Below are positions 230 through 45,584 of a stretch of 64,000 nucleotides of DNA, piece by piece (within the stretch, counting starts at the first letter, position 1; each line of letters opens with the position of its first letter). Source of the DNA: a phage; sequence record PZ534534.1; one strand, written 5' to 3'. The notes under the pieces are model-generated. The model was not told where the DNA came from and ran no database searches. It saw only the letters and a program-made list of their open reading frames with translations. A program made the position numbers and the translations under genes.

Positions 230-654
230 TGAGCACACATCCTCGTTTAGTGGATTGGCAAGAAAGATTGTGGAAAGTGTTTGACGAAGAGGCCACCATA
301 CCTTTTGAATGGGGATTCCACGATTGTTGCACCTTTGCGGCTAAGTGTGTTGATGCCCAATACGGAACAGATTTTCTTTCTAACTTTGAAGGAACGTATA
401 AAACAGAGTTGGAAAGCAAAAGATGGTGCATGCTTCGTTTCAAAACCACACACCTGCCTACTATTTTTGATCTCTTTATGACTCGGCTGGATACTCCTAA
501 ACAGGCTCAGCGTGGAGATATTGTCATTTTCGAAGGTCTGAACGGGCTCACCGCTGGTGTGTTCTGGAACAACCAGATTTGGGCTAAAGGTGATAAAGGG
601 GTCTTTATGTTCGACATGAAAGATTCTATCGTTGTTGATGTCTGGAGGTATTAA
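229..654 (+). CDS. tail tip assembly protein (lambda gpK-like, putative Cys/His hydrolase fold)
   Basis: ATG 229 with GGGAGG RBS; motifs FHDCCTF and GDIVIFEG; sits directly upstream of J-like gene with TAATG overlap. Confidence 0.4.
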   Translation: MSTHPRLVDWQERLWKVFDEEATIPFEWGFHDCCTFAAKCVDAQYGTDFLSNFEGTYKTELESKRWCMLRFKTTHLPTIFDLFMTRLDTPKQAQRGDIVIFEGLNGLTAGVFWNNQIWAKGDKGVFMFDMKDSIVVDVWRY

Positions 655-6100: not shown

Positions 6101-6787
6101 ATGGCAGAGATTAAGTCGGATGTTAACCACATCCACACTCTGCCAGATTTTGTTCAGGGAGGTCTTGACTACCTGCCTGGAGATTTTCTGGCTGAGAAGG
6201 TTAATTTAGTCACATTCTTAACCGTATACCTTAAAAGGTTGGAGGATGTTGATAAGATGCTGGTAGGTTTGGCTGAAGGAAGATTGCTTAACAATGCCAG
6301 CGGAAGATACCTTGACGAAGTTGGTAATCAACTTGGTATTCTTAGGAATGGACTTTCAGATGCTGATTTTCGTGCCACACTAATTATTCAGCAGGCCGCA
6401 GCATCAAGGGGCGGGACTCGCGAAGATGTCATCTCCACCTTGCGACAATTGTTCGGAAGAGACAATTTCGATACGTGGAAAGGAGACAACTTCAGGTTTG
6501 ACATAAATATTAGAAAAACTTGCTTTGACATATTGCAGTCTATCGATCAGATCTTAGATATGCTACCATTACCTTGTCATTTGCGTCTTACAGAATCGCA
6601 AGGGCAAGCTTTTGGTTTTGAAGGGGACTCTACAGCTCTTGGCTTCGGATCAGTGTGGGAAGAAAACCAATTCGGAGTTGGTGGGCTGGCTACTTTGCTG
6701 TATGTTCCTGACGTAAGACCTGATTGGGACACCACAACCATTTATTGTGAAAGTATTACAGTAAACGCAACTAGACAGGAGGGTTAA
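6101..6787 (+). CDS. tail protein (possible P2 gpI-like baseplate component)
   Basis: 228 aa ORF directly following baseplate-J-like gene; call by synteny only. Confidence 0.3.
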   Translation: MAEIKSDVNHIHTLPDFVQGGLDYLPGDFLAEKVNLVTFLTVYLKRLEDVDKMLVGLAEGRLLNNASGRYLDEVGNQLGILRNGLSDADFRATLIIQQAAASRGGTREDVISTLRQLFGRDNFDTWKGDNFRFDINIRKTCFDILQSIDQILDMLPLPCHLRLTESQGQAFGFEGDSTALGFGSVWEENQFGVGGLATLLYVPDVRPDWDTTTIYCESITVNATRQEG

Positions 6788-8859
6788 TGGCAACAGCTAT
6801 TTTTAAACCTTACCGTGATTACTCTACAATGGCTGCACGGTTTCATTACCGCACAGTTCAGGATACTGCCGTTCCTGGTAGGGATTATAATCATGTTGAG
6901 GGTGATGTAACTATCCCAATTGGGGCAACCAGTATTGAGATCCCAGTGGAAATTGTTGACAAATTACCCAACAGGTTGCCAAGAAGCTTCTTTATGGAGT
7001 TTTCATCAAAATCTCAAGGGGTGATGATTGGAACACAAAGGGCGAAATGTACAATAGTTTCAGATGAGAATCTTGACAGGATATCTTGGGATACTGTTGA
7101 GGAGAGAATGTTTCACCCAAGGTATTGGGTTACAACTACTCAGCAGACTGAAAGTACCTGTATTGTTGCAGATAACAACTGTTGTATTAACCGTTTAGTG
7201 TCAAGAACATATGGAGGTATGGCTGGGTGCATTTGGGAAACAGTTGACAAGTATGACCATTTCGGTATTGGGTTTGATGATCACTATGAGATGAGAAACA
7301 CCAAGCTTTGGTTCAGAATGTCAATAACCAATGCCAGCAACTTCTCCACCCCTGAAAAGATGATTATGACTGTAGACCTTGTTGATGGCACAATCATCTA
7401 TGTTCCTTTAGCTCAATATGCTGTCAGCATCTCAGAGGATAAGAATGTTGCAGAGATTCATATTGATTTCGAGGACTGCGTCGGGATGGATCAGAACAAC
7501 AACATGATGGGTGTTGATCCTCGACAGGTGAGAAGGATTTTAATACCGCTTATGCCTAAAGACTGGGTAAGTAATAGCACAGACCCGAGAACGGAAAATG
7601 TAGAGTGTGAGTTGCGCCTAGATCTGCTCCAGCCAGACACAGGCTGGAAAATGATGCAACTTAACAATATTCAGGTTAAAGAGCACGACGTTGGGATCTG
7701 CACCGCATATGACGATATGTGGAACGTATCTCCTTTAAGGGTGTTGAACAATATCAAGCGTCTGGGCTATACCGGAACCATAAACCATTATGTTGGTATG
7801 AGTCATTATTATGACTACACATGGTCAGGAACCCAATGGTCTATAAACAGAACAGGGGCGCTAAACGCTGCAGCTTATAAATGGCATGATGATTTTATGT
7901 ACAATGCCAAACGACATAACTTCGACGTTATGCAATCTGTAAGTTTTGAGCTTTTCAGCGATGCCTGCCCGTTGGAATGGACCCAAAGAGACTGGAACGA
8001 TAACTACGCTAAAACAGGGTATACACCCTGTAGCTACCTCCTGTCTCCAACCATTGAAGAGGGTATGAATTTCCTTACTGCAGTATTTAAGAATTTTGCA
8101 TCAGCCGCTATGAGAAACAACCTGCCAGTGATTATGCAGGTTGGTGAACCGTGGTGGTGGTACAATACCGATACTCGTAGACCTTGTATTTATGATTACC
8201 CTACAAAGCAGGCGTTTTATGATGAGACAGGTGAGTATGCATTAGATATTGGGACTATTGACGATCCTAAAACTGGCGGTGTTTACGACAAGTATGTAGC
8301 ATTTTGTCGTGGTAAGCTTGGCGCTCGTATTGCGGCCATTTCAAAGGCAATAAAGGCACACGCTGCATCAGCTCAGATGACAGCTCTGCTGTTTTTCCCA
8401 ACCATTATGGAAACAGAGCTTACGCAAAAGCTGAACCTTGCTGACCAATATAAAAAAGAAGCAGGTGCTCTTGATTTCTTCTGCACCGAGTGCTACGATT
8501 GGGTGATGCAGGGAGGTATTGAAAAGGCAAAAGAGTCTGTAAACATACCTATCGTTAAGTTAGGTTGGCAACCGTCTGAAATACAATACCTTGCAGGGTT
8601 CGTTCCTAGTAAAGAGCTTGCTCCGGTATATGGCTACGACCCAACCAGGAATTACCAAGAATTTTTATGGAGATGTATCTGCGGAAACATGGCAACCATA
8701 GAGTATAGATACCCTGAGGTAAAACAGTATGTGTGGGCATACCCGCAAGTAATGTCTGACAGCATCACTGTTACAGCCAGAGATTCTACCGTGCTTCATA
8801 TGGGGCAGGTTGCTCTGAAAGGGTATGTAGAAGATGTTGTCCCTCCAGACTTCTCATAA
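6787..8859 (+). CDS. tail-associated protein with N-terminal Calx-beta-like domain
   Basis: 690 aa; N-term GRDYNHVEGDVTIPIGATSIEIPVEIVD fits Calx-beta pattern; start overlaps upstream stop. Confidence 0.4.
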   Translation: MATAIFKPYRDYSTMAARFHYRTVQDTAVPGRDYNHVEGDVTIPIGATSIEIPVEIVDKLPNRLPRSFFMEFSSKSQGVMIGTQRAKCTIVSDENLDRISWDTVEERMFHPRYWVTTTQQTESTCIVADNNCCINRLVSRTYGGMAGCIWETVDKYDHFGIGFDDHYEMRNTKLWFRMSITNASNFSTPEKMIMTVDLVDGTIIYVPLAQYAVSISEDKNVAEIHIDFEDCVGMDQNNNMMGVDPRQVRRILIPLMPKDWVSNSTDPRTENVECELRLDLLQPDTGWKMMQLNNIQVKEHDVGICTAYDDMWNVSPLRVLNNIKRLGYTGTINHYVGMSHYYDYTWSGTQWSINRTGALNAAAYKWHDDFMYNAKRHNFDVMQSVSFELFSDACPLEWTQRDWNDNYAKTGYTPCSYLLSPTIEEGMNFLTAVFKNFASAAMRNNLPVIMQVGEPWWWYNTDTRRPCIYDYPTKQAFYDETGEYALDIGTIDDPKTGGVYDKYVAFCRGKLGARIAAISKAIKAHAASAQMTALLFFPTIMETELTQKLNLADQYKKEAGALDFFCTECYDWVMQGGIEKAKESVNIPIVKLGWQPSEIQYLAGFVPSKELAPVYGYDPTRNYQEFLWRCICGNMATIEYRYPEVKQYVWAYPQVMSDSITVTARDSTVLHMGQVALKGYVEDVVPPDFS

Positions 8860-23904: not shown

Positions 23905-25386
23905 TTACTTAGCGTACTCGATTAATTCCACAGTTTTCCCAAAGCTCGGGATATAATTTTTATTATACCCTTCGGTGAGAACCCATAAAGTATCGTACTT
24001 TTTCCACTTGTTGTCAACAGCCTTTTGTTCAAAGTTATGCTCAAAGTAGAGGTCGGTAAGGACGATGACATCTTTTGCATTCGGTATGTTAGCATCCAGA
24101 TACTCGAACACGCAGGCGGCTGTTGTGCCCCATGTTGAGTGGACCTCATAGTTAATCATCTCATCGATGTTACCGCGAGTGTATACTTTAACCTCTCCAA
24201 CCTCCGTTGACCAACAGAACATAGTAACCTTAAACTCTTTATACAAATTGCACAACCCGGTGATCTCATTGAACATTTTCTTTAAAGTTCTTTGTGAGAT
24301 CGACCCAGAAACGTCTAAAGCCACTACAATATCTATAGTGTTTTCCGGATTACGACCAGGAACAATAACGTGTTGATTCTTGTTTATAGCTCCAACTTTT
24401 CGCATTGTGGTGGTCAAAGACCCAGATCGGCGACCAGGTTTTCTGTAGGTTAACTCAGCCTTTCTTTTAGATAACATACGTTGCTTAATAATATCTATAT
24501 AATTGATTACAGGCTTGCCTCTGTTTTTGACAAACTCGCGCACCGCCTCGGGGCAACGACCTCCTGAAGCTTGCATTGCTGCTTCCAACATGTCACCAGA
24601 GTCCTGCATGGCCTGATCTTTGTCAGATTGACTGATTACTGGTTGCGGCTGATCATACCCCATAGCCTTTCCAAGATCATCACTAGTGCCACCGTTCCCG
24701 CTCATGTGATCATCGGTTTGTCGTTTATCTCCTTGGGAGTTCTCACCTTTACCGTTCTTACTTTTACCGCCATTCTGATCTCTTTGTTTATCAAGAACTG
24801 CATAGACGTTCTCAGCAATCCATCCATGAAACCTCATGTCGCAGTAGCAATTAGCTAAGAAGCCAAAAGGCTTACCTTTTACGAACTCAGTGCTTTTCCC
24901 CTTCGGGAAGAAAACACAAGGAGGCTTGCTAAAGTCAACCACAAGACCTGTGTTGATAACGTGATCACAAGCAATATTGAACAGTTCCGGCTCAAAGCTT
25001 TTACCACGGACCAGATGATCACAGATAATATGCCCCACCTCATGTGACAGAAGAAAGGCCACCTCTTTCACAGATTTTGGGGAATAGAAAACCTCAGCCA
25101 TCTCAAACTGCTTGTCAGTCAGAGATGCTTTAAGAATGGTTTTACGCTCATCCGCCAACCCCATAATGAACTCAGGGCTGTAGTAGATGCGTTTATGGTC
25201 GGTTGCCATGGTGGAGCACCATGTGTGGTTTTCTACGAACTGCAACCCTGACAGTAGTGTGCCATAAAACGGCAGCTTTTCAAGGAGATACATACGTGCA
25301 GCCTGCAACATTCTCAGGGCATCATCTTTCTGCGAGGCAATGATTTCTGAACTTCTGCTATCCATTAAAACTCCAGAAGGGGCCAT
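23905..25386 (-). CDS. VWA-domain protein with N-terminal HExxH metallopeptidase-like domain
   Basis: HEVGH zincin motif; MIDAS-like DVSGS in C-terminal region; 493 aa. Confidence 0.55.
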   Translation of the reverse strand: MAPSGVLMDSRSSEIIASQKDDALRMLQAARMYLLEKLPFYGTLLSGLQFVENHTWCSTMATDHKRIYYSPEFIMGLADERKTILKASLTDKQFEMAEVFYSPKSVKEVAFLLSHEVGHIICDHLVRGKSFEPELFNIACDHVINTGLVVDFSKPPCVFFPKGKSTEFVKGKPFGFLANCYCDMRFHGWIAENVYAVLDKQRDQNGGKSKNGKGENSQGDKRQTDDHMSGNGGTSDDLGKAMGYDQPQPVISQSDKDQAMQDSGDMLEAAMQASGGRCPEAVREFVKNRGKPVINYIDIIKQRMLSKRKAELTYRKPGRRSGSLTTTMRKVGAINKNQHVIVPGRNPENTIDIVVALDVSGSISQRTLKKMFNEITGLCNLYKEFKVTMFCWSTEVGEVKVYTRGNIDEMINYEVHSTWGTTAACVFEYLDANIPNAKDVIVLTDLYFEHNFEQKAVDNKWKKYDTLWVLTEGYNKNYIPSFGKTVELIEYAK

Positions 25387-28747: not shown

Positions 28748-29017
28748 ATGTTATACCAGCAATATGAACTTCGTGCAGAAAAAGAGTTAAATTTTGACAA
28801 AGATATTCACAGATATTATTATGGGAAAGTTAGAGGGCAAGCAAGAAAGTGTACTCCAACACTCTTTTATGCCAGCAGACGACTAGCGCCAGAAGAGGCA
28901 ACAGCAGAAAGGGTTGCGTACAACTGGAGAGTCACGTATGATATTGACAGATTCGATGTGATATCTGTTTTGGAAAACTTTGAAAACACTTACACACAAG
29001 TAGAGGACTTTTACTAA
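28748..29017 (+). CDS. hypothetical protein
   Basis: 89 aa ORF, stop overlaps next start. Confidence 0.4.
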   Translation: MLYQQYELRAEKELNFDKDIHRYYYGKVRGQARKCTPTLFYASRRLAPEEATAERVAYNWRVTYDIDRFDVISVLENFENTYTQVEDFY

Positions 29018-30201
29018 TGTCAAGAAACGTATTCGAAAGTGGTCAAATCACTGTCCGTGAGTTGCCAGCTATTATTCAGTTTGCCCAACGTCATAGCCGA
29101 TCTGTCCTAATTTTGGGACCAATGGGTGTGGGTAAAAGCCAGGTGATGAAGCAGATCGCTGATAATATGTTCGGTGAGCGAGATGACAACCTTGTTGACG
29201 TGCGACTGTCAGATAAAGATCCTGCCGACTTATCTGGGCTACCTATCCCTGTAGAAGCGGATGGAACTACACGTACAGTGTTTGCAATTCCAGAATTTTG
29301 GCCTGCGGATCCTGACTGGAGCGGAATTATCTTTCTGGATGAGCTCACTCATGCAGATAACTACCTGCAAAAGGTTGCAATGCAAATTATGCTTGACCAC
29401 AAGTGCGGCACCTATGCATTCCCTAAAGGTTCTGTTTTTGTGGCTGCGGGTAACCGTTCTACAGATGGTGCGGTTCTTTCGGCGCTCGAAGCCCCTCTGG
29501 CTAACCGTTTTATCATTGTAGAGGTTACAAGCAATGCAGAGGTGTTTATTGAGGACTACGCATTCCTCAACGGGGTTCACTCCTCTGTAATTGGGTATCT
29601 GAAAAGAGTTCCATCAGCTATTGATAATTATGAGGCTATGGCTGAGATTAATTGTCCATCTTTTGCCACACCACGATCTTGGGTTGCTGCATCTGACATC
29701 TTGCACGATTTTGACAGCGGTATTATTTCTGACGCTATGGCCCGTGTTCTTCTACAAGGTGCTATTGGTCACACTGCAGCGGTAGAGATCTGGACTTACC
29801 ACACCAAGAAACGTAATTTACCGGAAATCGGTCGGATTATGGCAGGTGGCTGCAAAGAATACGTAGGTCCTAAGCAGCCAGACATTTTGTGGATTCTTGG
29901 ATCTGAAGGTTGTATCGCTATTCGCAATATGATGGAAAATGCAAGTATCTCAGACGAAGATCTTGTCAGCTGCGTGGCAAACTTCCTCGATTTCCTTTGG
30001 GAAAACTTCAAGGACGAGAACCGAGATTTTGTATTCTCAGTCTTTATGGCGATGATGAAACCTAATGCCTTAGGAAATGCCTTGCTTATCGGTAAAGGGC
30101 GTGACAAGATTGTTGCTCAGCTGATCAAAGCATACCCAAACCTGATGAAGATTGTAAAAGAGTTTGGTGAAGAGTTTAGCGCCATTTTGGCTAAAGCTTA
30201 A
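29017..30201 (+). CDS. AAA+ ATPase, MoxR/CbbQ-like
   Basis: Walker A GPMGVGKSQ, Walker B IIFLDELTHAD; 394 aa. Confidence 0.6.
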   Translation: MSRNVFESGQITVRELPAIIQFAQRHSRSVLILGPMGVGKSQVMKQIADNMFGERDDNLVDVRLSDKDPADLSGLPIPVEADGTTRTVFAIPEFWPADPDWSGIIFLDELTHADNYLQKVAMQIMLDHKCGTYAFPKGSVFVAAGNRSTDGAVLSALEAPLANRFIIVEVTSNAEVFIEDYAFLNGVHSSVIGYLKRVPSAIDNYEAMAEINCPSFATPRSWVAASDILHDFDSGIISDAMARVLLQGAIGHTAAVEIWTYHTKKRNLPEIGRIMAGGCKEYVGPKQPDILWILGSEGCIAIRNMMENASISDEDLVSCVANFLDFLWENFKDENRDFVFSVFMAMMKPNALGNALLIGKGRDKIVAQLIKAYPNLMKIVKEFGEEFSAILAKA

Positions 30202-30603: not shown

Positions 30604-30630
30604 TCCCCCGCTTCGGCGGGGATTTTCTAT
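30604..30630 (+). terminator. rho-independent terminator
   Basis: CCCCGC-UUCG-GCGGGG hairpin (same stem-loop as 4503-4518) followed by ATTTTCTATTT. Confidence 0.55.
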
Positions 30631-30641
30631 TTGGAGTCATT

Positions 30642-31142
30642 GTGAAAATTAAGATCTTTGCTATTATTTTGAGCGCACTTTTATCGCTGCCTGTTGTTGC
30701 AGCACCAAAACAAAAAGTATATCATACTTGCAAGCCATCAGATACTAAGGAAAACATTCTGGCATGCAATATCTACAGGGAAGCTAGAGGAGATGGCACG
30801 ATGGGTATGCTGGCATCTGGGTTTGCCACACTAAACAGGAAATCCCACCCTAAATACCCAGACACTATAAGAAAGATTGTCTACCAACCTAACCAGTTTT
30901 CGTGGACAAACCACGGCAAAACTTTTAAGGTGACAGAAAAAGATTCATGGGATCACGCTAAAAGTCTTGCAAAGATGCTTCTAAAGGTCTATAATAACAA
31001 CCATGTTGCATACATGGCTATGGACATAACAGGTGGAGCAACACACTACCATACAACCAAAGTACGACCGAAATGGGCAAAAAAGATGCAGAGGACAGCT
31101 CAATTCGGGAGCCATATCTACTACAAGGAGCGCAATAAATGA
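30642..31142 (+). CDS. secreted cell wall hydrolase (SleB/Hydrolase_2-like)
   Basis: GTG start; N-terminal signal peptide; NIYREARGD and NQFSW motifs typical of SleB-type hydrolases. Confidence 0.5.
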   Translation: MKIKIFAIILSALLSLPVVAAPKQKVYHTCKPSDTKENILACNIYREARGDGTMGMLASGFATLNRKSHPKYPDTIRKIVYQPNQFSWTNHGKTFKVTEKDSWDHAKSLAKMLLKVYNNNHVAYMAMDITGGATHYHTTKVRPKWAKKMQRTAQFGSHIYYKERNK

Positions 31143-33121
31143 TTGTAAACAGTAATGAAACTAAAGCGGTACTAACCGGGAATATGGAGGTCACCAGGGG
31201 CTCAATTTCTCTGAACAAAGAGACTTTTGGGCTAATCATTAAAGGGATTTACGAAGATAAGGTGCTGGCAAGCTGCCGTGAACCAATCTTCAATGCCGTG
31301 GACTCCCATGTTGAGTCTGGACGGGGTGATGTACCGATCATTATTCACTCTCCTACAGACCTTGAACCATACTTCTTTGTGCAGGACGTTGGATTGGGCA
31401 TGTCAGAAGAGATGGTCCGCAACACTTTCATGAATCTCGGGGAGTCAACCAAGCGCAACAGCAACGCTCTGGTAGGTAATAAAGGTGTTGGTTCAAAGGC
31501 TCCGTTCAGTATGGTGGACACTTTCGATGTTATCAGTGTGCACAATGGTGTTGAAAGCACATATCTATTGTTCTTGGATCAGGGTATCCCAAACGTTACC
31601 AAGATCCGTGAGCGGAAGACTGAAGAGCACAACGGGGTAAAAGTTCAGTTCCATGTTAAGAAAGAGCATGTCCTGAAATATCGCACTGCTATTGCGTCAT
31701 GCCTACGCTATGCAAAGTTTCCGTTTACCGTTACCGACCCTATGACCAGTAAGATGCTGGAAGGTGATAAGGTTGAGGCGCAGTATCACTACGAGAAGGA
31801 TGGTTGGAAAATGACCATCCTGAAAGGTTATACCAGCTCTGATGAGAGCCGTGTGGTGATGGGACACCAACCTTACCGCTCTAAGTTTCTGGAAACATTG
31901 ACAGACTACCCTGCAATCTGTGTAGAGATCCCTATCGGGGATTGCAATATTAACCCTGGGCGCGAATGGACCATAGAGGGGCACGACGATGGTGGATTCC
32001 AAGAGCGTCTGGAGGCTTTTGTCAAAGAGGGTATCCGTCTTCGTGGGGCAGAAGTTGTTGCGGAATTGGAGACAGCAAAAACATCCTCAGAAGCACGTGA
32101 GATGATGAAGAACAGTGGAGTGTTCGGGCACATCTTCGGTAAGAATTTTATGTGGGACAGATGGGAAGAAACAGGGCTTGGCGACTTAGGCGATTGTGAA
32201 ATTTTCGCTGGAGGCTTAAATAAAGGCCGCATAGGCTATGCTCGTTACGGAAAGTCGGAGTTCTTACGAGGTGTATACCTTGTATTTAACGACGGAGATG
32301 GCAAATATAACCGAAATAAGTGTAACTATTTAAGCGAAATCACCGGACGCAACGTTTTCTATTGCCGGAATACGGATCTAGTGAAAGAGTTTAAAGAGGC
32401 GGCACACCATCCGTTCTTTGCAGATACTGTCAAATTGTTATCAGAGCTCCCTCGCCGACCTGCGAAGAAAGGTGAAACAAAAACTCATTACGAGCCAGGT
32501 TATTGGGTTAAAAAGCTTGAGAAGGATGGTTACTTCCGTCGTGAACGTATTACTAAGGCAGAGTTCAAGAAGATTAAGCACTGCATTCCTTATGAAGGTG
32601 ATATCCAACGTGGAAGTTGTTGGCTGGGACAGCTGAGTAACATCTACCAGCAAAATTATGACCGTGTGCGTGCGGCACTCCAGATTCCTGAAGGGGAAGA
32701 CCTGTACCTGGTATCAGAATCCCGTCTGCTTTGGACTGATCCTGATTGCCAGTATGTTACAGAGAAAAATGTGGAACATTTGTTGAAAGAGGATGCTTGG
32801 AAATTCTTACTGACTCGCGCAGCAAATGAAACTTCATATGACAGCCTGTATAGACAATTAGGGAAAATTATTCCCATGCAAGATTTTGGAAATTATCGGC
32901 CACATTTCCACAAGTGGGAAGGTAACACCGCGTGGAAGCACAGTGAGCTAAATCATCGTGCCAAAATCTTAATCGCCAACCGAGTTAAATGCGGGAAGGC
33001 CTATATTGCAAGATTGGAAAAGAAATACCCACTTTTGAAGCATGTAGGCTTGAAATATTGGGACACTCCTGCTATGATTGAATACCGTGAACTGATCGAT
33101 ACAAAGAATAACATCAAATAA
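31139..33121 (+). CDS. rIIA: rIIA-like protein with GHKL-type ATPase domain
   Basis: Bergerat-fold boxes: EPIFNAVD, DVGLGMS, GNKGVGSKAPF; motif set recalled from T4 rIIA; 660 aa. Confidence 0.55.
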   Translation: MIVNSNETKAVLTGNMEVTRGSISLNKETFGLIIKGIYEDKVLASCREPIFNAVDSHVESGRGDVPIIIHSPTDLEPYFFVQDVGLGMSEEMVRNTFMNLGESTKRNSNALVGNKGVGSKAPFSMVDTFDVISVHNGVESTYLLFLDQGIPNVTKIRERKTEEHNGVKVQFHVKKEHVLKYRTAIASCLRYAKFPFTVTDPMTSKMLEGDKVEAQYHYEKDGWKMTILKGYTSSDESRVVMGHQPYRSKFLETLTDYPAICVEIPIGDCNINPGREWTIEGHDDGGFQERLEAFVKEGIRLRGAEVVAELETAKTSSEAREMMKNSGVFGHIFGKNFMWDRWEETGLGDLGDCEIFAGGLNKGRIGYARYGKSEFLRGVYLVFNDGDGKYNRNKCNYLSEITGRNVFYCRNTDLVKEFKEAAHHPFFADTVKLLSELPRRPAKKGETKTHYEPGYWVKKLEKDGYFRRERITKAEFKKIKHCIPYEGDIQRGSCWLGQLSNIYQQNYDRVRAALQIPEGEDLYLVSESRLLWTDPDCQYVTEKNVEHLLKEDAWKFLLTRAANETSYDSLYRQLGKIIPMQDFGNYRPHFHKWEGNTAWKHSELNHRAKILIANRVKCGKAYIARLEKKYPLLKHVGLKYWDTPAMIEYRELIDTKNNIK

Positions 33122-33131
33122 GGAGACCAAG

Positions 33132-34337
33132 ATGATTTTCATCTACGAACATTTCAAAACCCGTAAAGAAGCACGAGACCGCCGTGCAGAACTTGAGAAG
33201 AAGGGTTTCACATGTGCCATTGAGAAAGGCGACACAACCTGGACACTGGCAGTTGGTGCCCCAGAGTTGTTCGATCCTGACCGTGACAGCGTCTGCTACA
33301 CCCGTGAGGATTTTGAAACCCGCGAAGAGGCCCGTTTATTTCGATACGGTCTGGAAGATAACGGTAAGTACGCCATGATCTTAGATTTAGGCGAAGGGTC
33401 CGTTAAACGTTGGGGCGTGGTATACCCACTGTGTGTTGTTCATGGTGTGGGGTTCACTGGGGTAGCAATCAAGTCAGAAGAACCTTTAGTAGAAGTCAAA
33501 GATCCGGTGCTGGAGGTGGTGAGCAGCGTATCTCAGCAACAGACTCGAAGTATTGAGCCTTTGGTAGTTATTTGTGGGGAACTCCTCCAGATCACCTGCA
33601 ACGAAGGCATTTTTGAAATTCGCCGCAGCGAAAGTGAGGAAGTTTACCAGAAAGTCTTCGACCATATCTCTGTTCAGGAATATGATGAGGCAATTGGTGA
33701 AATCCTTGTCTGGCTGGAACGCAAGAATGAGTTCACCACACTTGCAGACAACCTGGTCATGAAAGATGGTAAGCTCTACTACTACGGTGTAGAGATGCGA
33801 TCCACCATTGCAAAGAAAATTGAGAAAGATTATGCAGACGGAACACTGGATGACCGCTATGTGAAATTCCTCGTTCGCCTGCTGCGCAATCCTTCTGCAA
33901 AATCTGTAAACATGCTCTACGATTTTATGCAGGCCAACGATATCCAGATTGCAGAAGATGGTCGAATCATTTGCTACAAAGGGGTTCAGTTTAACGGCAG
34001 CAAGTGGGTGGATTGGCACAGTGGTAAAGTTCCACAATACCAGGGGGCTTTTGTATCCATGCCTCGTAACTTTGTAGAGGATGATCCGGAAGCTGCGTGC
34101 TCTTATGGCTTACACTGCGCCAGCAAAGAGTATGCAAAGAGCTACGGCACTGTAATGACTGTTATGGTTGACCCTGCAGATGTGGTTAGTGTGCCATACC
34201 AACACAATAGCGCTAAGTGCCGTGCATGCCGCTATGAGATTGTGGTAGCTCCGGAAGCACGCAAAGATGGAGACCCTATTGAATATGTAGTTGATCGTGA
34301 CGGTAACACTATCGACATTCTTTACGAGGAGGCGTAA
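33132..34337 (+). CDS. rIIB-like protein (by synteny)
   Basis: 401 aa ORF immediately downstream of rIIA-like gene; no motif confirmed. Confidence 0.35.
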   Translation: MIFIYEHFKTRKEARDRRAELEKKGFTCAIEKGDTTWTLAVGAPELFDPDRDSVCYTREDFETREEARLFRYGLEDNGKYAMILDLGEGSVKRWGVVYPLCVVHGVGFTGVAIKSEEPLVEVKDPVLEVVSSVSQQQTRSIEPLVVICGELLQITCNEGIFEIRRSESEEVYQKVFDHISVQEYDEAIGEILVWLERKNEFTTLADNLVMKDGKLYYYGVEMRSTIAKKIEKDYADGTLDDRYVKFLVRLLRNPSAKSVNMLYDFMQANDIQIAEDGRIICYKGVQFNGSKWVDWHSGKVPQYQGAFVSMPRNFVEDDPEAACSYGLHCASKEYAKSYGTVMTVMVDPADVVSVPYQHNSAKCRACRYEIVVAPEARKDGDPIEYVVDRDGNTIDILYEEA

Positions 34338-35707
34338 TGGAAAAAGGGCAGTATGATGTAGGCACAGATGCTGCCCTCGTTGCAATCATGAGTGGTGAGA
34401 ATGTCTTCGTTTCAGGACCTGCAGGTTGTGGGAAGACGTATCTCATCAACATGATCCAGTCAATGTATGGAGACTCTTGCATAACGGTTGCCCCGACAGG
34501 GGTAGCCGCTTTAAACGTTAATGGAGCAACAGCACACCGAACCTTCGATCTTGCAGCAGGTGTGAGCATGGAGTCAGACTGGACCGCAATAAGGGCAAAA
34601 ACAGCAAAGCCTTTGAAAAGCAAGGCATTTACCATCCTGATTATCGATGAAATCTCTATGATCCGTGCTGATAAGTTTATAGAGATGGATAGGAAACTCC
34701 GCTTCCTTCGAAAAAATGACAAACCTTTCGGAGGCATACAGGTCATATTGTTTGGCGATTTTTACCAGGCACCTCCTGTTGTCTCTTCTATGGAGAAGGA
34801 AGCCTACTTCAACTTCTACCATACGGACCTGTGTTGCTATACCGAATCTTGGAAAGAGCTTGACCTCCACAACATAGCCTTAGTAGATCAGTTCCGACAG
34901 GAGTCTATTCGATTTGCCACAATGCTCAACTGTGTTCGTGAGGGTCGTCGCATAAAAGAGGTTGTAGCAGAACTTAATGCTCGCTGTTACAAAGGCGGTG
35001 TACCAACAGACGCTCTCACAATTTGCGCCACCAACAAACAAGCAGAGGAAGTGAACAGAAGGTTCTATGATGCCATCAACGCCCCAGAGAAGGTATACAC
35101 TGGTGAAATGAAGGGTAAGTTTCCCTCCACCCTGCCAGTTGAGCAGGAGATGAAGTTGAAAATTGGCATGAAAGTTATGATAACCGCCAACGATGTTGAC
35201 CCGACGCACAAGGTACCTTATTATGTTAACGGAACACGTGCCACAATTGTTAAATTTAAGAACAAGGCGGTGGTGGTAGAGCTTGAAGATGGAACACAGG
35301 TTGACATAGAGCAGAGGTTGTGGGAGAATAACGAGTATAAGCCCTCTCAGAGATACAACATTGCAGAAAGGAAGATGGAGAAGTTTATAGAGAGGGTAGT
35401 GATTGGGTCATACAAGCAACTTCCTCTGAAATCTGGGTACGCCGTAACATCTCATAAAAGTCAAGGACTTACGCTAGATTGTTACAACCTGGACCTTGGA
35501 AAGAACGGAGCTTTCTCTCCTGGGATGACGTATGTTGCTTTGAGTCGGGTTAAGACAATACAAGGAATAAACTTGTTGCGTCCACTAAGAGAAGTTGACA
35601 TTATTGTTGACCCGCGAGTCGTAGAGTTTTACAATACAACATTCCCTGACTTAGACAAAATTGTCAGGAAAGATTTTGAAACCAGAGCAGAAGAGGGGGA
35701 CGTATGA
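34337..35707 (+). CDS. SF1B DNA helicase (Dda/Pif1/RecD-like)
   Basis: Walker A GPAGCGKTY, Walker B ILIIDEISM, plus GDFYQAPPV-type motif. Confidence 0.6.
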   Translation: MEKGQYDVGTDAALVAIMSGENVFVSGPAGCGKTYLINMIQSMYGDSCITVAPTGVAALNVNGATAHRTFDLAAGVSMESDWTAIRAKTAKPLKSKAFTILIIDEISMIRADKFIEMDRKLRFLRKNDKPFGGIQVILFGDFYQAPPVVSSMEKEAYFNFYHTDLCCYTESWKELDLHNIALVDQFRQESIRFATMLNCVREGRRIKEVVAELNARCYKGGVPTDALTICATNKQAEEVNRRFYDAINAPEKVYTGEMKGKFPSTLPVEQEMKLKIGMKVMITANDVDPTHKVPYYVNGTRATIVKFKNKAVVVELEDGTQVDIEQRLWENNEYKPSQRYNIAERKMEKFIERVVIGSYKQLPLKSGYAVTSHKSQGLTLDCYNLDLGKNGAFSPGMTYVALSRVKTIQGINLLRPLREVDIIVDPRVVEFYNTTFPDLDKIVRKDFETRAEEGDV

Positions 35708-36045
35708 GTTTGTGGAGAAATATCGTTAACTACGTGTGTGGCAATCCGACTCCTGAAGAGAAGAATGTTGTGATTCACGATTTTACTAAAAGATCTCGTG
35801 AAAAAGATCTACTGCTAACAAAGGTGACTGATAAAGATCCTGCAGTAGGAGACTGGGCAGGTTTTGCGTTTACATCGGACAAATACACCTTTAACAAAGG
35901 TGACTACCTTGTTGTAGATTTTAACGAAGACATTGAGGGTGCTGGACCTTACTATCAAACCCTTATTGTTGCAGGGTGTGTTAATCTCTCTGCAGGCATG
36001 CACAGTTTGATTCTTTTTGAGCTTGACTCTGAAGACCTTGAGTAG
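35704..36045 (+). CDS. hypothetical protein
   Basis: 113 aa ORF, start overlaps helicase stop. Confidence 0.4.
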   Translation: MSLWRNIVNYVCGNPTPEEKNVVIHDFTKRSREKDLLLTKVTDKDPAVGDWAGFAFTSDKYTFNKGDYLVVDFNEDIEGAGPYYQTLIVAGCVNLSAGMHSLILFELDSEDLE

Positions 36046-36106
36046 TAAGGTGTGAGTATAAAGGGGAGGCACTCCTCCCCACAAAAACTAAGGAGAGCAC
36101 CAAACG

Positions 36107-37432
36107 ATGAGTAAAACCAAATTAGAACTTACCTGGATAGGTAAAAACGAGCGCAAAAAGTTAGAGCCGCACATTTTGTTAGAAGATTCTAGCAAATCTT
36201 ACCACAGCCAGAAGGTGACCGAAAACGATATTTTTGATAATAAACTGATTTTTGGAGATAACTTATTAGCATTGAAGGCGCTAGAGCAAGAGTATGCATG
36301 CAAAGTGAAGTGTGTTTACATAGACCCACCATTCAATACCGGGAGGGCTTTTGAGCACTACGATGATAGCCTGGAGCATTCCATTTGGCTGGGCTTAATG
36401 AGGGATAGGTTAGAAATAATTCGTAATCTTCTGAGTGATGATGGGGTAATATTCGTTCACTTAGATGGTTGCGAAATGGCGTATTTAAAAGTTTTGATGG
36501 ACGAGATTTTTGGTCGTGCAAATCAGTTAAATACCATCTCGATGACCACAAATTCCCCTTCAGGATTTAAGGCAACAGGAGCCACAGTTTTCTCCACAGC
36601 AAACTTTTTGCTTGTATATGCAAAAGATCGCAACCAGAAACCGCTTAACAAAATCTATATACCTAAAGGGTATGATACAGGATATAACAAATACCTATTA
36701 AACCCGGATGACCATTATAAAAATTGGACGTGGTGTGGTATTGCCGATGCGTTTGCAAAGGCCAATGGCTATAAAGATGCAAAAGAAGCCAAGAAAAAAC
36801 TGCCTGACACATTCGATGATGAATTAGCACAATTCGCAATTGATAATGCAGAACGTGTATTTCAATCTGTTGCAATTGGTGGTGGTGCTAAAATAAAGAG
36901 AAAAGAAACTATCGAGAAGTCAAAGAAAGACAGGGATAAGGTTTATGTACATCCAAATGAGGATGTTGAAGGATTTTATATCGCAAATGGTAGGCAAATG
37001 GTCTTTTACTCCAACAGGCTTTTGGAAATTGACGGTGAGATGCAGCCTGCGGAACTAATAACTGATGTTTGGACAGATATTAGTTGGAATGGAATAGCAA
37101 ATGAAGGTGGCGTTAGTTTCAAAAATGGTAAAAAACCAGAAGCGCTTTTGAAGCGGATTTTCGAGATGTGTACGCGAGAAGGCGATTTGGTATTGGATTC
37201 ATTCGGTGGTTCGGGAACTACTGCTGCTGTAGCTCACAAAATGAAAAGACGTTGGATCTTGATCGAACTGGGTGATCATTGTCATACCCATATTATTCCG
37301 CGCTTGGAAAAAGTGATCGATGGCGAAGATCAAGGTGGTATTTCTAAGTCTGTAAACTGGCAAGGTGGTGGTGGCTTCCGTTATTACAAACTTACCCCGG
37401 CCTTAATTGCGAAAGATATGTCTGATCAATAA
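36107..37432 (+). CDS. DNA methyltransferase, beta-class (N6-adenine or N4-cytosine)
   Basis: Catalytic IDPPFNTG motif near N-term and SAM-binding LDSFGGSGTT near C-term. Confidence 0.6.
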   Translation: MSKTKLELTWIGKNERKKLEPHILLEDSSKSYHSQKVTENDIFDNKLIFGDNLLALKALEQEYACKVKCVYIDPPFNTGRAFEHYDDSLEHSIWLGLMRDRLEIIRNLLSDDGVIFVHLDGCEMAYLKVLMDEIFGRANQLNTISMTTNSPSGFKATGATVFSTANFLLVYAKDRNQKPLNKIYIPKGYDTGYNKYLLNPDDHYKNWTWCGIADAFAKANGYKDAKEAKKKLPDTFDDELAQFAIDNAERVFQSVAIGGGAKIKRKETIEKSKKDRDKVYVHPNEDVEGFYIANGRQMVFYSNRLLEIDGEMQPAELITDVWTDISWNGIANEGGVSFKNGKKPEALLKRIFEMCTREGDLVLDSFGGSGTTAAVAHKMKRRWILIELGDHCHTHIIPRLEKVIDGEDQGGISKSVNWQGGGGFRYYKLTPALIAKDMSDQ

Positions 37433-41586: not shown

Positions 41587-42321
41587 ATGAACGAGTTCAG
41601 AGACCACTGTGTAGCCAACCACCTGTGGTCAGAGATACTGGAGTATGACGGTCAAAATCTTTTTTGGAAGATAGACATTCTGGCAGGTAGCGGTGTAGGA
41701 TATGTTAAAACTTCAGCAGGCTCCAGAGCTGACAAGGGGCAAGATGCTGATGGCAGGCCTGTAGTTAGTCTAGGAAAGCATTGCACTAAAGGTGCCCACG
41801 TCATAATCTGGGAAATGTTTAACGGCCCTGTACCGGAAGGGTATGAGGTTGACCACATCAAGGAGATAAGGGAAACAGGTGGTGTGGCTGATAACAGTAT
41901 TCAAAATTTGCAACTACTCGAGCCCACAGATAACAAAAAGAAAAGTTGCAAGATACCTCGTAGCAACAACAAATCTGGCAGGGTCGGGGTGCACTATTCT
42001 GAAGAAAGAGATGCATGGATAGCTCAAGGCACAGACTCTGTAGGGGAAAGGGTCTGGCTAGGCCAGTACAGAACTTTTGAAGAGGCAGAGTGGGCAAGAA
42101 AGTTCTTCGAAGATAATGGTTTTTCGCACAAGAGTGGAAGAGCCGTGCAGTATAATAATACCAGCGGTTGCTCAGGGGTGAATTGGGATAAAACCCATGA
42201 AAGATGGGTAGCCAGAATTTATGTAGATGGTAAAAGGAAATGCCTTGGGTATTTCAAGAATAGGGACGATGCAATAGCTGCAAGAAAGAATGCTGAGAAG
42301 AAACAGGAGGGGACAGTATGA
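41587..42321 (+). CDS. free-standing HNH endonuclease with AP2-like DNA-binding repeats
   Basis: HNH core GAHVIIWEMFNG...EVDHI...NSIQNLQLL; C-terminal GVHYSEERDAW-type repeats. Confidence 0.55.
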   Translation: MNEFRDHCVANHLWSEILEYDGQNLFWKIDILAGSGVGYVKTSAGSRADKGQDADGRPVVSLGKHCTKGAHVIIWEMFNGPVPEGYEVDHIKEIRETGGVADNSIQNLQLLEPTDNKKKSCKIPRSNNKSGRVGVHYSEERDAWIAQGTDSVGERVWLGQYRTFEEAEWARKFFEDNGFSHKSGRAVQYNNTSGCSGVNWDKTHERWVARIYVDGKRKCLGYFKNRDDAIAARKNAEKKQEGTV

Positions 42322-44741
42322 GTAATTGGTGCTTCGATCTGGAGGCCTCTGGGCTTTTGGAAGACCCAGATCTTTATTATCACTGCGGTCTGTTTAAAGA
42401 GCTGAATAAGAACCGTTTTATGCTGTTCCTTCCTCTAAATGACCGCACACACTACTCCGAGGAGGATATAGAAAAGGCCAAGAACTTCATTCTGGCAAAG
42501 AAAACTCTTTATAAAGATTTTGAAGTTCGCATAGCAGATTTTTCGGAGTTGGAAGGTTGGCTTACAGGCAATTCCGACTGGTCACCAACAGCTTTGAACT
42601 GCCATAACTGCTACAGTTATGACTTTATGCTGATGGAAAGATTATCCGGTATTCATTTTGATATGTTCCGTGATCCTAAATGCATGGGGACTATCAACGA
42701 CCACCAGGTTAACCTGTTTGATACGTTGGCGATGAGTCGAATTTTGTGGCCTGATCGCCCTTTACCAAAAGGTTGTCCGGACTCTGTATTCAACCCGGTT
42801 ACTAAGAAAATGCAGCCTGTTGGTCCTCACGGCCTTATGGCATGGGGCTACGCCCTTGGTAACCAGAAAGTTCAAATTGATGACTGGCGCGATCTTCCGT
42901 TGTGGAAGTATGTGGATCGTGTATTCGAGGACGTTATCATCCAGGAGCTGCTCTGGAAAGAGCTGGTAGCGGAATCAAAAGGTGTATTCTACGGCAAATC
43001 TGACATGCAGAACTTTATGTACGATCCTGCCAAAGAGAAGCCGAAAGGGTTCAAGAAGATCACCTGGAAGAACGCATTACGCCGAGGCATGCTGCAGCAC
43101 TTCCTGATGGAGCTGCAGGCCCGTCAGGGTGTGTATTTCGACATAGACGGGGCTATTGCTTTACGTGACCGCTGTGATGCGTGGATGAAAGAGATCGCTG
43201 ATCGTGTTGAACCTCAACTTCCTTTAAAAGAGTTATCAATATCTCAGCGGCCTAAATTCCCTGAAAAGCCGTTCAACCAAGATGGGACAATTTCCAATAA
43301 TGGCTGGAAATGGTTAAAAGATAAGCTTGGCTACCCTGTAGACATGAGCGCTTTAGAGTTCAAAGCCCCACCTAAGCGAGCATTTACCTCTACAGGAGAT
43401 GTCAGTAAGATAGGGATAAAATGGTGTGAAGAGATGGGCTGCAAAGACCCCGATAAGATGGCTGATTTCTTGAGAGGCTATATTAAGGGCACCTCCACAC
43501 CACAACCTTTACCTAAAGAGCTAATGGATCAGGCAATAAGTGATCTACAGCAGAAGCGAATGCCGGACTGCAAGATACCTATGAAAATCAGCAACCAGGA
43601 CGACATTAAGCGATACCTGATCAGTGCTGGTTGGCTTCCGACAATGTGGAGAACTAAGGATGTAACTAAAGACAGCAAGAAGAAAGCTCTACCTGATGCA
43701 GATGTTGATGCACGAGTATATGCATATATGGACGAGCTTTTAGAGTCAGAGTATTGTGACCTGATTATCAACTTCTGGAACAAAACTGATGCTAAGTTCC
43801 AGACAACCGTGCACAAGTTCCGAAGCTTTCCTAACTCCGAAAGGATTAAAAAGGAAGTATTCGGGAAAATACGTAGAAAAGCTAGGGCACTTATTACTTC
43901 TCCGCAACTGAAAGATACGTTTGGACACCTATGCCCGAATCTTGAAAAATTGAACGGAGAGATGGCTAAAGATATCGTCTTGTGGTTATCATTGCGAAAC
44001 CGCAGATCGGTCCTTGATCCAATCAAGGAGGATAAGGTTGATACTGGTCTTCTTAATCACCCACGTTTGAAGATTGACCATAAGCTTCCTGCTAAAAGTT
44101 CTGGGTTAACAAACACTTCACGACAGAAACACAGTATTTGTGCAAACATGCCTAAACCATCTCCTAAAGTGGTTATGGGTAAAGAGATGCGTAGTCTGTG
44201 GGGTGTTCCTCCTGGATACTTTCAGATCGGTATTGACGGGTCCAACTTAGAGCAGCTTATCGGGGCTTGGGGTGCCTTTGAGTTCGACAACGGCTTGTAT
44301 TATGATGTTGTAAGTAACGGGGACGCACACCAAAACAATGCTGAGGCATATACAAAAGTAGCAGGCAGAGAGGTGTCTCGTAACGACGGTAAACCTATCA
44401 CGTATGGGGTTATGTACGGGGCACAAAAAGATAAAGTTGCAGATATGCTGGACATCTCTCCAGAGTTGGGACAAAGGGTAATCGATGCACTTTGGGATGC
44501 CAACCCTGGTCTTAAGGGGCGTAAAGAGGATCTGGAGAAATTCTGGGAAGCAACGGGTAAGAAGTTTATCTACTCTTTTGATGGTCATGCTATCTGGACC
44601 CGATCTAAACACTCTTTACTTAATGCATACCAACAGAATGGTGGTGCATCGCTGTGTGACTTAGTTGGGATACTCATGCACCACCAAATGGTGAAGCGTG
44701 GGTGGTACGATGAAGGTGTCCGTCGTATTATCTATTACCAT
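42318..44741 (+). CDS. DNA polymerase, family A, exon 1
   Basis: Exo I motif FDLEASG; motif A IDGSNLEQ; motif B RNDGKPITYGVMYG; frame ends ..IIYYH then in-frame stop inside intron. Confidence 0.65.
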
Positions 44742-45584
44742 AAATAACATTGTGGCTTCATAGAGTGATCTATGTCGAATAACCTCTTTAATTGACGGGA
44801 AAGCTAAGTTGACTTTTACACCTGAGTATGGTAAAAGCTCAATATGCTAATCCGCAGCGAAGACTAAAGGGGTGTAGTTAAAATGGCTAGAACAGCTGAT
44901 TATCACGGGTATACCGTGTTTGATGATGGAACAATACCTTTATCGAAACGTGATCATACAACAATGTTTTGTTTTGATAATGGTAGAGGTTACCTTTGCG
45001 TAACCATGCTAATCGAGGGGAAGCAGTGCACAAAAGGTGTCCACCACCTGGTTGCTGAATGCTTTGTATCAAACCCGGATCCTGAAAGGCTCACATGGGT
45101 GAACCATAAGGATGGGAATAAGTACAACAATGCATACTGGAACCTGGAATGGACCACCCCTGGTGGAAATATCAAGCACGCCTATGATAATGACCTCAGA
45201 GTAAGGCCAGTTGGTGAGTATAATGCCAACGCTGTGCTGACAGAAGATGAGGTAATAGAGATTTGCGAACTGTTGCAGAGTGGTCTACGACAATGCGAGA
45301 TTAGGGATCTTGGATATCCTTATGAGACCGTCAGGGCTATAAAGCAAAGAAGACAGTGGAAACATATCTCTAAAAACTACACCTGGTAGTAACGTTCAGA
45401 GACTATCGAAAGCATAGCTCCAACACAGGTTGGTGTGAAGAAGCGAGTAGAGTAGGCCAGCAAGTGCGGTCGAAATGGGAGGTGCCTTGTTACCAAGGCA
45501 GTGAGGTAGTCCGATCCATACAGGAAACTGTATGGCTATGCACGTAATGGTGCGGGGTAGCTTAACGACCTACCTGAACAGATG
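44742..45584 (+). mobile_element. group I self-splicing intron in DNA polymerase gene
   Basis: Exon ends in U; GTGG guide-like sequence at 44752; GTTCAGAGACTA at 45394 and TAGTCC at 45507 (P7-like); ends in G; splicing restores YHDE. Confidence 0.65.
44883..45389 (+). CDS. intron-encoded HNH homing endonuclease
   Basis: GVHHLVAECF...WVNHKDGNKYNNAYWNLEW pattern typical of phage HNH homing endonucleases. Confidence 0.7.
   Translation: MARTADYHGYTVFDDGTIPLSKRDHTTMFCFDNGRGYLCVTMLIEGKQCTKGVHHLVAECFVSNPDPERLTWVNHKDGNKYNNAYWNLEWTTPGGNIKHAYDNDLRVRPVGEYNANAVLTEDEVIEICELLQSGLRQCEIRDLGYPYETVRAIKQRRQWKHISKNYTW

Follow-up and report, generated by a model that had tools for sequence, protein, structure and literature searches.

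Phage rII proteins carry the label 'lysis inhibitor' for historical reasons, as it goes back to a rapid-lysis plaque phenotype. As for function, knock-down of RIIA or RIIB by CRISPRi-ART in the phages T4, MM02, EdH4, SUSP1, and N4 had no effect when Rex was absent, but lowered the efficiency of plating on Escherichia coli expressing lambda RexAB (Adler et al., 2025; PMC11879866). Likewise, transposon insertions in T4 rIIA and rIIB were depleted only when RexAB was present. The presence of rII genes in rV5-like phages has been noted before (PMC4591320; PMC7344957), and the conditional RexAB role was shown experimentally in a phage 95% identical to the one described here (PMC11879866). Among the genes that adjoin rII in these phages, hydrolase homologues from the Vequintavirinae are reported to have a signal peptide, to be toxic on expression, and to have a proposed role in lysis; the signal peptide was described in Certrevirus, and the CR3 homologue was implicated in lysis (PMC7344957). 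In rV5, the protein that its authors took as the obvious lysin is another one, lysozyme gp89, and the helicase orthologue, gp237, was described as a PIF1/RecD helicase.

Here, we compared these systems with a block of four genes within a 64,000-nt stretch of phage DNA (the window). The window is part of the genome of a Vequintavirus, an rV5-like E. coli myovirus, and is standard for this genus. Whole-genome comparison, which the earlier note had proposed for placing the phage, showed collinearity of all three stretches tested (most of the 64 kb) with over 100 Vequintavirus genomes, at about 95-97% identity, and the 25-kb stretches that flank the block are likewise 95-97% identical to and collinear with genomes of this genus. 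The block itself is matched in 121 phage records at 95-99% DNA identity, with matches spanning at least 80% of the query in 84 cases, and is 98.7% identical to phage MaxTheCat, though the latter lacks the N6-adenine methyltransferase that the window carries just downstream. In many of the related GenBank records, the genes are already labelled rIIA, rIIB, cell wall hydrolase, and helicase.

The four open reading frames, all on the + strand, were confirmed with the boundaries that the earlier note had given (Table 1). The hydrolase begins with GTG at 30642, and 35707 is the final base of the helicase stop codon. The profile and pairwise matches that identify the four genes are strong and lie well outside what chance would give. 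They are tightly packed and mostly overlapping, and lie in a rightward-transcribed cluster that also holds DNA replication genes. ATGA overlaps are found at the hydrolase/rIIA junction and between the helicase and a 113-aa ORF, and a TAATG overlap at the rIIB/helicase junction, while rIIB follows immediately downstream of rIIA after a 10-nt spacer with a GGAG ribosome-binding site (RBS). The 113-aa ORF is the last gene before a hairpin at 36063-36080. At the other end, the EdH4 annotation lists the site equivalent to the upstream hairpin as a putative transcriptional terminator, and no convincing promoter was found between this hairpin and the hydrolase start.

Table 1. Features of the rII block and its immediate borders (positions in the window).
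Feature	Position	Strand	Basis and remarks
Terminator-like GC-rich hairpin, CCCCGCTTCGGCGGGG then ATTTTCTATT (predicted)	30606..30631	+	Consensus scan; just upstream of hydrolase RBS and GTG start
SleB/CwlJ-family hydrolase, 166 aa	30642..31142	+	PF07486, phrog_938
rIIA, 660 aa	31139..33121	+	phrog_612, PF13589
rIIB, 401 aa	33132..34337	+	phrog_609, T4 rIIB similarity
SF1B Pif1/RecD2-type DNA helicase, 456 aa	34337..35707	+	PF05970, phrog_325
Conserved ORF, 113 aa	35704..36045	+	phrog_11869 (E 5e-77), a function-unknown family; hypothetical protein in relatives

In a PHROG profile search, rIIA matched phrog_612 at essentially full length (E 1.3e-124, residues 1-658 on profile positions 1-724 of 725), and its sole Pfam match above cut-off was PF13589 (HATPase_c_3, E 1.8e-8). 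The protein is laid out in two parts: an N-terminal GHKL (Bergerat-fold) ATPase-like domain takes up about residues 1-200, and the C-terminal region after it is specific to rIIA. Pairwise comparison with T4 rIIA by BLASTP gave 28% identity over 198 residues (1-198, E 3e-21), and beyond these N-terminal 200 residues no similarity to T4 rIIA was returned. Within the shared part, all three Bergerat motifs align between the window and T4 proteins, namely ExxxNxxD (REPIFNAVD and RELITNMID), DxGxG (DVGLG and DFGPG), and GxxGxG (GNKGVGSK and GGFGLGSK), which bears out the earlier description of a GHKL ATPase with rIIA-like boxes. In the window rIIA, the first motif includes E47 and N51, and the second begins at D83.

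The downstream gene, which had been noted as rIIB-sized, proved to be rIIB, with matches to phrog_609 (E 9e-62 over residues 132-375) and, pairwise, to T4 rIIB (37% identity over 204 residues, E 4e-39). Moreover, its homologues carry the precomputed family PF26926. In the AlphaFold2 (AF2) model of rIIB, two lineage-specific beta-alpha-beta-beta units (residues 3-42 and 56-99) are predicted at the N-terminus, followed by a linker (100-141) that is putatively disordered and then by the conserved rIIB domain (about 144-397). Comparison with predicted viral rIIB structures gave 31 matches to this model at E <= 1e-3, although we found no solved structures that resemble rIIA or rIIB. The N-terminal 140 residues are not shared with T4 rIIB in the pairwise comparison.

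For the hydrolase, family searches identified PF07486 (Hydrolase_2, 70.4 bits with the cut-off at 27, E 2e-19) and phrog_938 (E 1.6e-27), and a structural relative was the catalytic domain of SleB (PDB ID: 4f55, E 2.4e-6), in which YGESRGE aligns with the YREARGD motif of the phage protein. The Glu of this motif is presumably the catalytic residue, as in the SleB literature. The N-terminus (MKIKIFAIILSALLSLPVVAA, then PK) has a basic n-region, a 15-residue hydrophobic core, and then V-A-A, and we read it from the hydrophobicity profile and the sequence as a signal peptide of residues 1 to about 21 (MKIK-IFAIILSALLSLPV-VAA, followed by P) with n, h, and c regions present; the Kyte-Doolittle 19-mer maximum is 2.34, at residue 3. 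Both the SleB likeness and the export signal had been anticipated from the DNA. Judged by its sequence, the protein is a member of the SleB/CwlJ family and not a SleB orthologue, because it scores 48.3 bits against the equivalog cut-off of 236.5 (TIGR02869), with only the C-terminal catalytic part aligning. In a Gram-negative host, the substrate cannot be spore cortex. Being Sec-exported, the enzyme would most likely serve as an accessory murein hydrolase working from the periplasm.

The helicase matched PF05970 (PIF1, 114.1 bits against a cut-off of 25.9, E 9e-33) and phrog_325 (E 1.7e-111), and among solved structures it is closest to Pif1 helicases of bacteria, which align near full-length at E 1e-64 to 1e-52; PDB ID: 8bns (E 1e-64) and the Bacteroides Pif1 (PDB ID: 5fhd, E 2e-59) cover residues 19-433. 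T4 Dda, on the other hand, matched only weakly (27% over 172 residues, E 8e-6), so that specific orthology with Dda was rejected, and there were no Dda chains among the PDB matches at E <= 1e-5. Of the 'Dda/Pif1-like' assignment made earlier, the Pif1 part thus stands, and the likeness to Dda is confined to the superfamily level. As a Pif1-type 5'-3' SF1B enzyme, the helicase would most likely take part in phage DNA replication or recombination.

A similarly divided outcome applies to the tail tip genes, which had been taken as gpK/gpJ-like. The ORF at 654-4493 is indeed J-like (PF09327 Phage_Tail_Tip, 1.2e-38; PF24489 Ig_J, 1.2e-30; phrog_31, 6e-165), with partial BLASTP alignments to lambda J of 25-30% identity (E 4e-18 and 8e-17). 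The ORF at 217-654, in contrast, is DUF6950 and showed no similarity by BLASTP (E 0.69) to lambda K (MPN/NlpC-P60). Elsewhere, PF02413 (9927-10511) includes 'lambda gpK' in its description, and we take it to be a tail fibre assembly chaperone family.

This J-like gene is one of two points, together with rII having first been defined in T4, that could be cited for regarding the block as recently acquired by horizontal transfer, with a T4-like phage as donor and a lambda-like tail background as recipient, that is, for a novel hybrid genome. We assign next to no probability to such an origin. The T4 proteins are only 27-37% identical over partial alignments, the GC content of the block (0.447-0.454) is that of its surroundings with no compositional break, block and flanks are collinear with the same Vequintavirus genomes, and neither a close T4-like donor sequence nor a recombination junction is present. 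Moreover, the J-like protein sits in a myovirus baseplate cluster, its gene being followed by one for a Baseplate_J wedge protein and by baseplate and lateral tail fibre genes (as annotated in relatives), as expected for a contractile tail. Since the 64 kb runs collinear with Vequintavirus throughout the stretches tested, there is no local mosaic junction, and the gene combination reflects a layout fixed in a well-known genus rather than a new hybrid; calling the genome mosaic was an over-reading. So was the term 'T4-type', as 2,498 phage records contain an rIIA homologue and span many unrelated lineages (Felixounavirus-like, N4-like, Streptomyces, Caulobacter, and Vibrio phages among them), which makes rII no marker of T4 ancestry, and the helicase is Pif1-like. 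Virtually as implausible is that the GHKL protein belongs to another family (MutL, the ATPase subunit of a type II topoisomerase, Hsp90, or histidine kinase) and that its downstream neighbour is unrelated to rIIB. The generic nature of HATPase_c_3 and weak sub-threshold matches to HSP90-family and sacsin models would agree with this, but these matches score just 18-21 bits, where the cut-offs are 455 and 50. The outcome that the earlier note had named as refuting its reading, assignment to a family such as MutL or topoisomerase, did not occur: profile searches placed the protein in neither of these, nor in Hsp90, above cut-off, and no MutL, GyrB, or Hsp90 chains were found in the PDB at E 0.1, whereas the protein matches the rIIA profile at full length and T4 rIIA directly, and the adjoining gene matches T4 rIIB.

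More deserving of attention, though still improbable, is that the four genes form one lysis-timing module, in which rIIA and rIIB would hold back or time the attack of the exported hydrolase on the wall, with the helicase co-regulated. The ATGA overlap of the hydrolase stop and the rIIA start suggests translational coupling, the PHROG category 'lysis' is given to hydrolase, rIIA, and rIIB alike, and the toxicity and lysis involvement of hydrolase homologues fit as well. In addition, Mydovirus and Seunavirus share the arrangement hydrolase-(small ORF)-rIIA-rIIB-Pif1 helicase, which is hence conserved in three Vequintavirinae genera. Certrevirus, however, has hydrolase-small ORF-helicase without rIIA/rIIB, Justusliebigvirus has the hydrolase alone, and a hydrolase with 40% identity is found in T5-like phages, while most of the roughly 2,500 rIIA-bearing records are T4-like, Felix O1-like, or N4-like, and the T4 annotation has no hydrolase next to rII. 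Because hydrolase and helicase are adjacent without rII in Certrevirus, the rII pair behaves as a cassette of its own inside a syntenic block; the word 'module' in the earlier note therefore claimed too much, and the hydrolase and helicase are conserved syntenic neighbours of rII, not proven functional partners. Furthermore, in the phages tested, a Vequintavirus included, rII knock-down is without phenotype unless RexAB is present (PMC11879866), which agrees with counter-defence and not with control of the phage's own lysis. Also quite unlikely, in our estimate, is that the Vequintavirinae-specific rIIB extension, whose two tandem units are faintly SPOR-like, together with the coupled exported hydrolase marks a lineage-specific envelope function of rII or a retargeting beyond RexAB. 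In one form, rII would hide from abortive-infection sensors the perturbation of membrane or wall that the early murein hydrolase of the phage itself causes, and so keep them from being triggered; in the other, the extension would point rII at defence systems other than RexAB.

We therefore favour, as highly probable, that the rIIA-rIIB pair is a counter-defence cassette, required only under certain conditions, by which the phage can grow on hosts with the abortive-infection system RexAB of lambda, and probably on hosts with related membrane-depolarising systems. This reading is carried over from EdH4 (Vequintavirus murica), whose rIIA and rIIB are 99% (655/660, five differences) and 97% (390/401, 11 differences) identical to those of the window and whose knock-down matters only on RexAB hosts. 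Here, rIIA would use its N-terminal GHKL nucleotide-binding domain, presumably with ATP, and would work jointly with rIIB on the inner side of the cytoplasmic membrane. For this location, we draw on the T4 literature, in which both rII proteins are membrane-associated, since neither window protein has a predicted transmembrane segment (maximum Kyte-Doolittle values of 0.83 for rIIA and 1.69 for rIIB are not transmembrane-grade). The two proteins may either block activation of the RexB-type ion channel or block its consequences. As the C-terminal part of rIIA and the N-terminal 140 residues of rIIB are unlike T4, the specificity could differ.

The locus is already known, being annotated in dozens of public Vequintavirus genomes, and it carries little weight as a discovery; for the old question of rIIA/rIIB biochemistry, the window is no better than existing model phages. 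What is useful is the clean classification as a standard Vequintavirus, with rII as a widespread accessory counter-defence pair, and the adjoining hydrolase and helicase should not be presumed part of an rII functional module.

When set against known systems, the hydrolase shares its catalytic domain and E-[AS]-R-G motif with the Bacillus SleB/CwlJ spore-cortex lytic enzymes (PDB IDs: 4f55 and 4fet), though unlike Bacillus SleB it lacks the N-terminal peptidoglycan-binding domain and has a plain Sec signal peptide instead. In T4, rIIA (725 aa) and rIIB (312 aa) likewise form an adjacent rIIA-then-rIIB pair, and the GHKL motifs of rIIA and the C-terminal rIIB domain are common to both phages. 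In contrast, pairwise comparison with T4 rIIA leaves the C-terminal two thirds of the window rIIA unmatched, the window rIIB has about 140 extra N-terminal residues with the two predicted beta-alpha-beta-beta units outside the T4 alignment, and the T4 rII genes have no hydrolase as neighbour, with dda about 7 kb away. EdH4, rV5, Murica, isim, and MaxTheCat (all Vequintavirus), for their part, have the same genes, order, and neighbours as the window, and in the literature the pair of EdH4 and that of T4 are alike in that rIIA/rIIB counter RexAB.

The hydrolase, rIIA, rIIB, and helicase genes are consecutive on the plus strand, and their boundaries in the ORF listing are identical to those of the earlier note. 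Here, the packing is operon-like, in that the hydrolase stop and rIIA start overlap as ATGA, rIIA is separated by 10 nt from rIIB, which is preceded by a GGAG ribosome-binding site, and the rIIB stop and helicase start overlap as TAATG. The GC content of this block (0.447-0.454) is the same as that of the remainder of the window. Our promoter search of the block gave no excess of sigma-70-like sites (26 versus 25.5 in shuffled sequence) and none in the stretch from the upstream hairpin to the start of the hydrolase gene. The window likewise returned no tRNA or Rfam matches.

Features of the four-gene block and its surroundings
Feature	Position	Strand	Remarks
690-aa protein	6787-8859	+	baseplate and tail-fibre cluster
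DUF2201_N metallopeptidase plus VWA-like DUF2201 (one protein)	23905-25386	-	about 3.6 kb upstream of MoxR gene
MoxR-type AAA+ ATPase	29017-30201	+	phrog_1297, E 2e-110; two genes upstream of block
GC-rich hairpin, then T-rich tract	30606-30631		just upstream of block
Hydrolase	30642-31142	+	166 aa, GTG start (ORF listing)
rIIA	31139-33121	+	660 aa (ORF listing)
rIIB	33132-34337	+	401 aa (ORF listing)
rIIB repeat region	33132-33430	+	aa 1-100
Helicase	34337-35707	+	456 aa (ORF listing)
Conserved 113-aa ORF	35704-36045	+	start overlapped by helicase stop
Second hairpin	36063-36080		just past 113-aa ORF
N6/N4 DNA methyltransferase	36107-37432	+	PF01555, E 8e-42; directly downstream of block
HNH endonuclease with AP2 domain	41587-42321	+	PF13392, E 5e-12
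Family-A DNA polymerase ORF	42318-44747		start overlapped by HNH endonuclease stop

While Pfam assigns a generic GHKL domain to the rIIA protein, its match to the rIIA family phrog_612 runs from end to end (E 1.3e-124), and its first 198 residues align with T4 rIIA at 28% identity (E 3e-21) and retain all three Bergerat motifs. MutL, topoisomerase, and Hsp90 were rejected as alternative GHKL families, as none scored above the cut-off in Pfam, NCBIfam, or PDB sequence searches, and the GHKL protein is thus rIIA, as had been proposed. The gene downstream, previously described as rIIB-sized, is indeed rIIB, given its matches to the 'RIIB' family phrog_609 (E 9e-62) and to T4 rIIB (37% identity over 204 C-terminal residues, E 4e-39). 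Phage RB43 encodes a natural RIIA-RIIB fusion of 1049 aa (BFVD Q56C47), which accounts for the length of phrog_609 (1055 positions) and for its additional match to the N-terminus of the window's rIIA. Neither rIIA nor rIIB found relatives in the PDB sequence search.

Lying outside the alignment to T4 rIIB, the N-terminal region of rIIB carries two repeats with the pattern F-x-[ST]-R-x-x-A-R ... W-x-[LV] in a 20-sequence alignment, and these are conserved in Vequintavirus-, Mydovirus-, and Seunavirus-like homologues, with R11, A14, R15, W37, F61, R64, E66-A67-R68, R93, and W94 being invariant. An AlphaFold2 model built on this same alignment (mean pLDDT of 72) depicts the repeats as two tandem beta-alpha-beta-beta units (residues 3-42 and 56-99), followed by a disordered linker (residues 100-141) and a confident C-terminal domain. 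Against the PDB, the model gave no match at E <= 1e-3. The only suggestive hit was local, covering 42 columns of the CwlC SPOR domain (PDB ID: 1x60) at an E of 1.1, and its ranking beside de novo EHEE miniproteins indicates a generic small fold. The Pfam SPOR match was likewise sub-threshold (19.3 bits versus 21), and so the evidence for a SPOR domain is too weak; moreover, a cytoplasmic rIIB would not meet peptidoglycan. The model does resemble 31 predicted structures of viral rIIB, the RB43 fusion among them, and in this way the predicted fold confirms family membership and offers no functional lead. Separately, in a 498-aa metagenomic protein (P0005) encoded on a 3.3-kb contig, TPR repeats are joined to a fragment with 98% identity to the window's rIIB; this protein is probably a chimera created by assembly, not a true fusion.

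As for the two outer genes, the first indeed encodes a SleB-like hydrolase with a signal peptide, based on a Pfam Hydrolase_2 (SleB/CwlJ) score of 70.4 bits (cut-off of 27) and a Sec-type N-terminus (MKIKIFAIILSALLSLPVVAA/PK), whose features are predicted to be those of a cleavable signal peptide. It matches phrog_938, an 'endolysin' family, as well as the SleB catalytic domain from Bacillus (PDB ID: 4f55, E 2.4e-6), with YREARGD aligned to YGESRGE. An orthologue of SleB is ruled out by a score of 48 bits against the equivalog cut-off of 236.5, and in the rV5 paper the obvious lysin is another protein, the lysozyme gp89. The helicase, which had been termed Dda/Pif1-like, belongs to SF1B, with a PIF1 domain at 114 bits (cut-off of 25.9), but it resembles T4 Dda only weakly (E 8e-6). 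Among solved structures, it is closest to the Pif1 helicases of bacteria (E 1e-64 to 1e-52), and the rV5 paper describes helicase gp237 as PIF1/RecD-like. PADLOC defence-system models gave generic RecD-like matches only for the helicase, and no matches for the hydrolase, rIIA, rIIB, or MoxR.

The locus is not new: in phages nearly identical to this one, it has already been annotated and studied by experiment. Identity of the block to that of Escherichia phage MaxTheCat reaches 98.7%, and 121 phage records contain the block, all at an identity of at least 90%, with those whose taxonomy was looked at being Vequintavirus. GenBank names in relatives are rIIA, rIIB, cell wall hydrolase (SleB), and helicase, with rIIA also labelled 'membrane integrity protector' or 'protector from prophage-induced early lysis', and according to the Murica genome announcement, rV5-like genomes are opened at rIIA by convention. 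Over the block and flanks, more than 12 unannotated 'Campylobacter phage' records (MG065644-MG065690; host C. jejuni) share 96-97% identity with E. coli Vequintavirus genomes, which likely reflects host mislabelling or contamination.

Considering the block to be a T4-type module within a mosaic genome, as the earlier note did, finds little backing from its distribution. In Mydovirus and Seunavirus, the genes run hydrolase-(small ORF)-rIIA-rIIB-Pif1 helicase, but in Certrevirus the hydrolase is accompanied by a small ORF and a helicase, and rII is missing (an absence also found in the literature; PMC7344957). A phi92-like phage carries only the hydrolase, and the hydrolase of T5-like phages is 40% identical. 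Moreover, 2,498 phage records of very different lineages contain an rIIA homologue. Therefore, the rIIA and rIIB pair behaves as a separable cassette in a syntenic early/middle region, with no obligate four-gene unit, and is no signature of T4 ancestry. Mosaicism holds only in the deep evolutionary sense common to all tailed phages, as both 25-kb flanks are collinear with Vequintavirus (about 95-97% identity). A lambda J-like protein is indeed encoded (PF09327 and PF24489; lambda J at E 4e-18), but its gene adjoins a Baseplate_J wedge gene in a myovirus baseplate cluster, as in every Vequintavirus, and the gpK-like gene found no confirmation in the window. In the baseplate and tail-fibre cluster of this same myovirus, the 690-aa protein has 'non-contractile tail sheath protein' domains (PF23845, E 4e-80; PF23844) and a Calx-beta domain.

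MoxR and VWA proteins often function in pairs. Upstream of the MoxR gene, the DUF2201 protein is annotated as a putative metallopeptidase in relatives. According to a 2025 preprint, Vequintavirus Bas54 needs its MoxR ATPase gene (bas54_0063) to overcome DS-28, a predicted defence system of a clinical E. coli isolate. With MoxR, rIIA and rIIB, and two DNA methyltransferases, the region looks rich in counter-defence genes. The methyltransferase gene directly downstream of the block is present in isim and EdH4 and absent at that position in MaxTheCat; its site is a variable accessory island. Further downstream, the HNH endonuclease is probably a homing endonuclease insertion, and in MaxTheCat the DNA polymerase is annotated as a joined CDS of two pieces.

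In five phages spanning four subfamilies, EdH4 among them, knock-down of RIIA or RIIB left plating normal on Rex-free E. coli and lowered it when lambda RexAB was expressed (Adler et al., 2025; PMC11879866). EdH4 is itself Vequintavirus murica, and the window's rIIA and rIIB are identical to its proteins at 655 of 660 and 390 of 401 residues, respectively. T6 RIIB is itself sensed by a bacterial gasdermin system (PMC10312443). In T4, transposon sequencing found rII to be likewise conditionally essential. Because the near-identical EdH4 rII and the T4 data show a RexAB-conditional need, the best-supported reading, by analogy, is that rIIA and rIIB would serve as a counter-defence pair against RexAB-type abortive infection.
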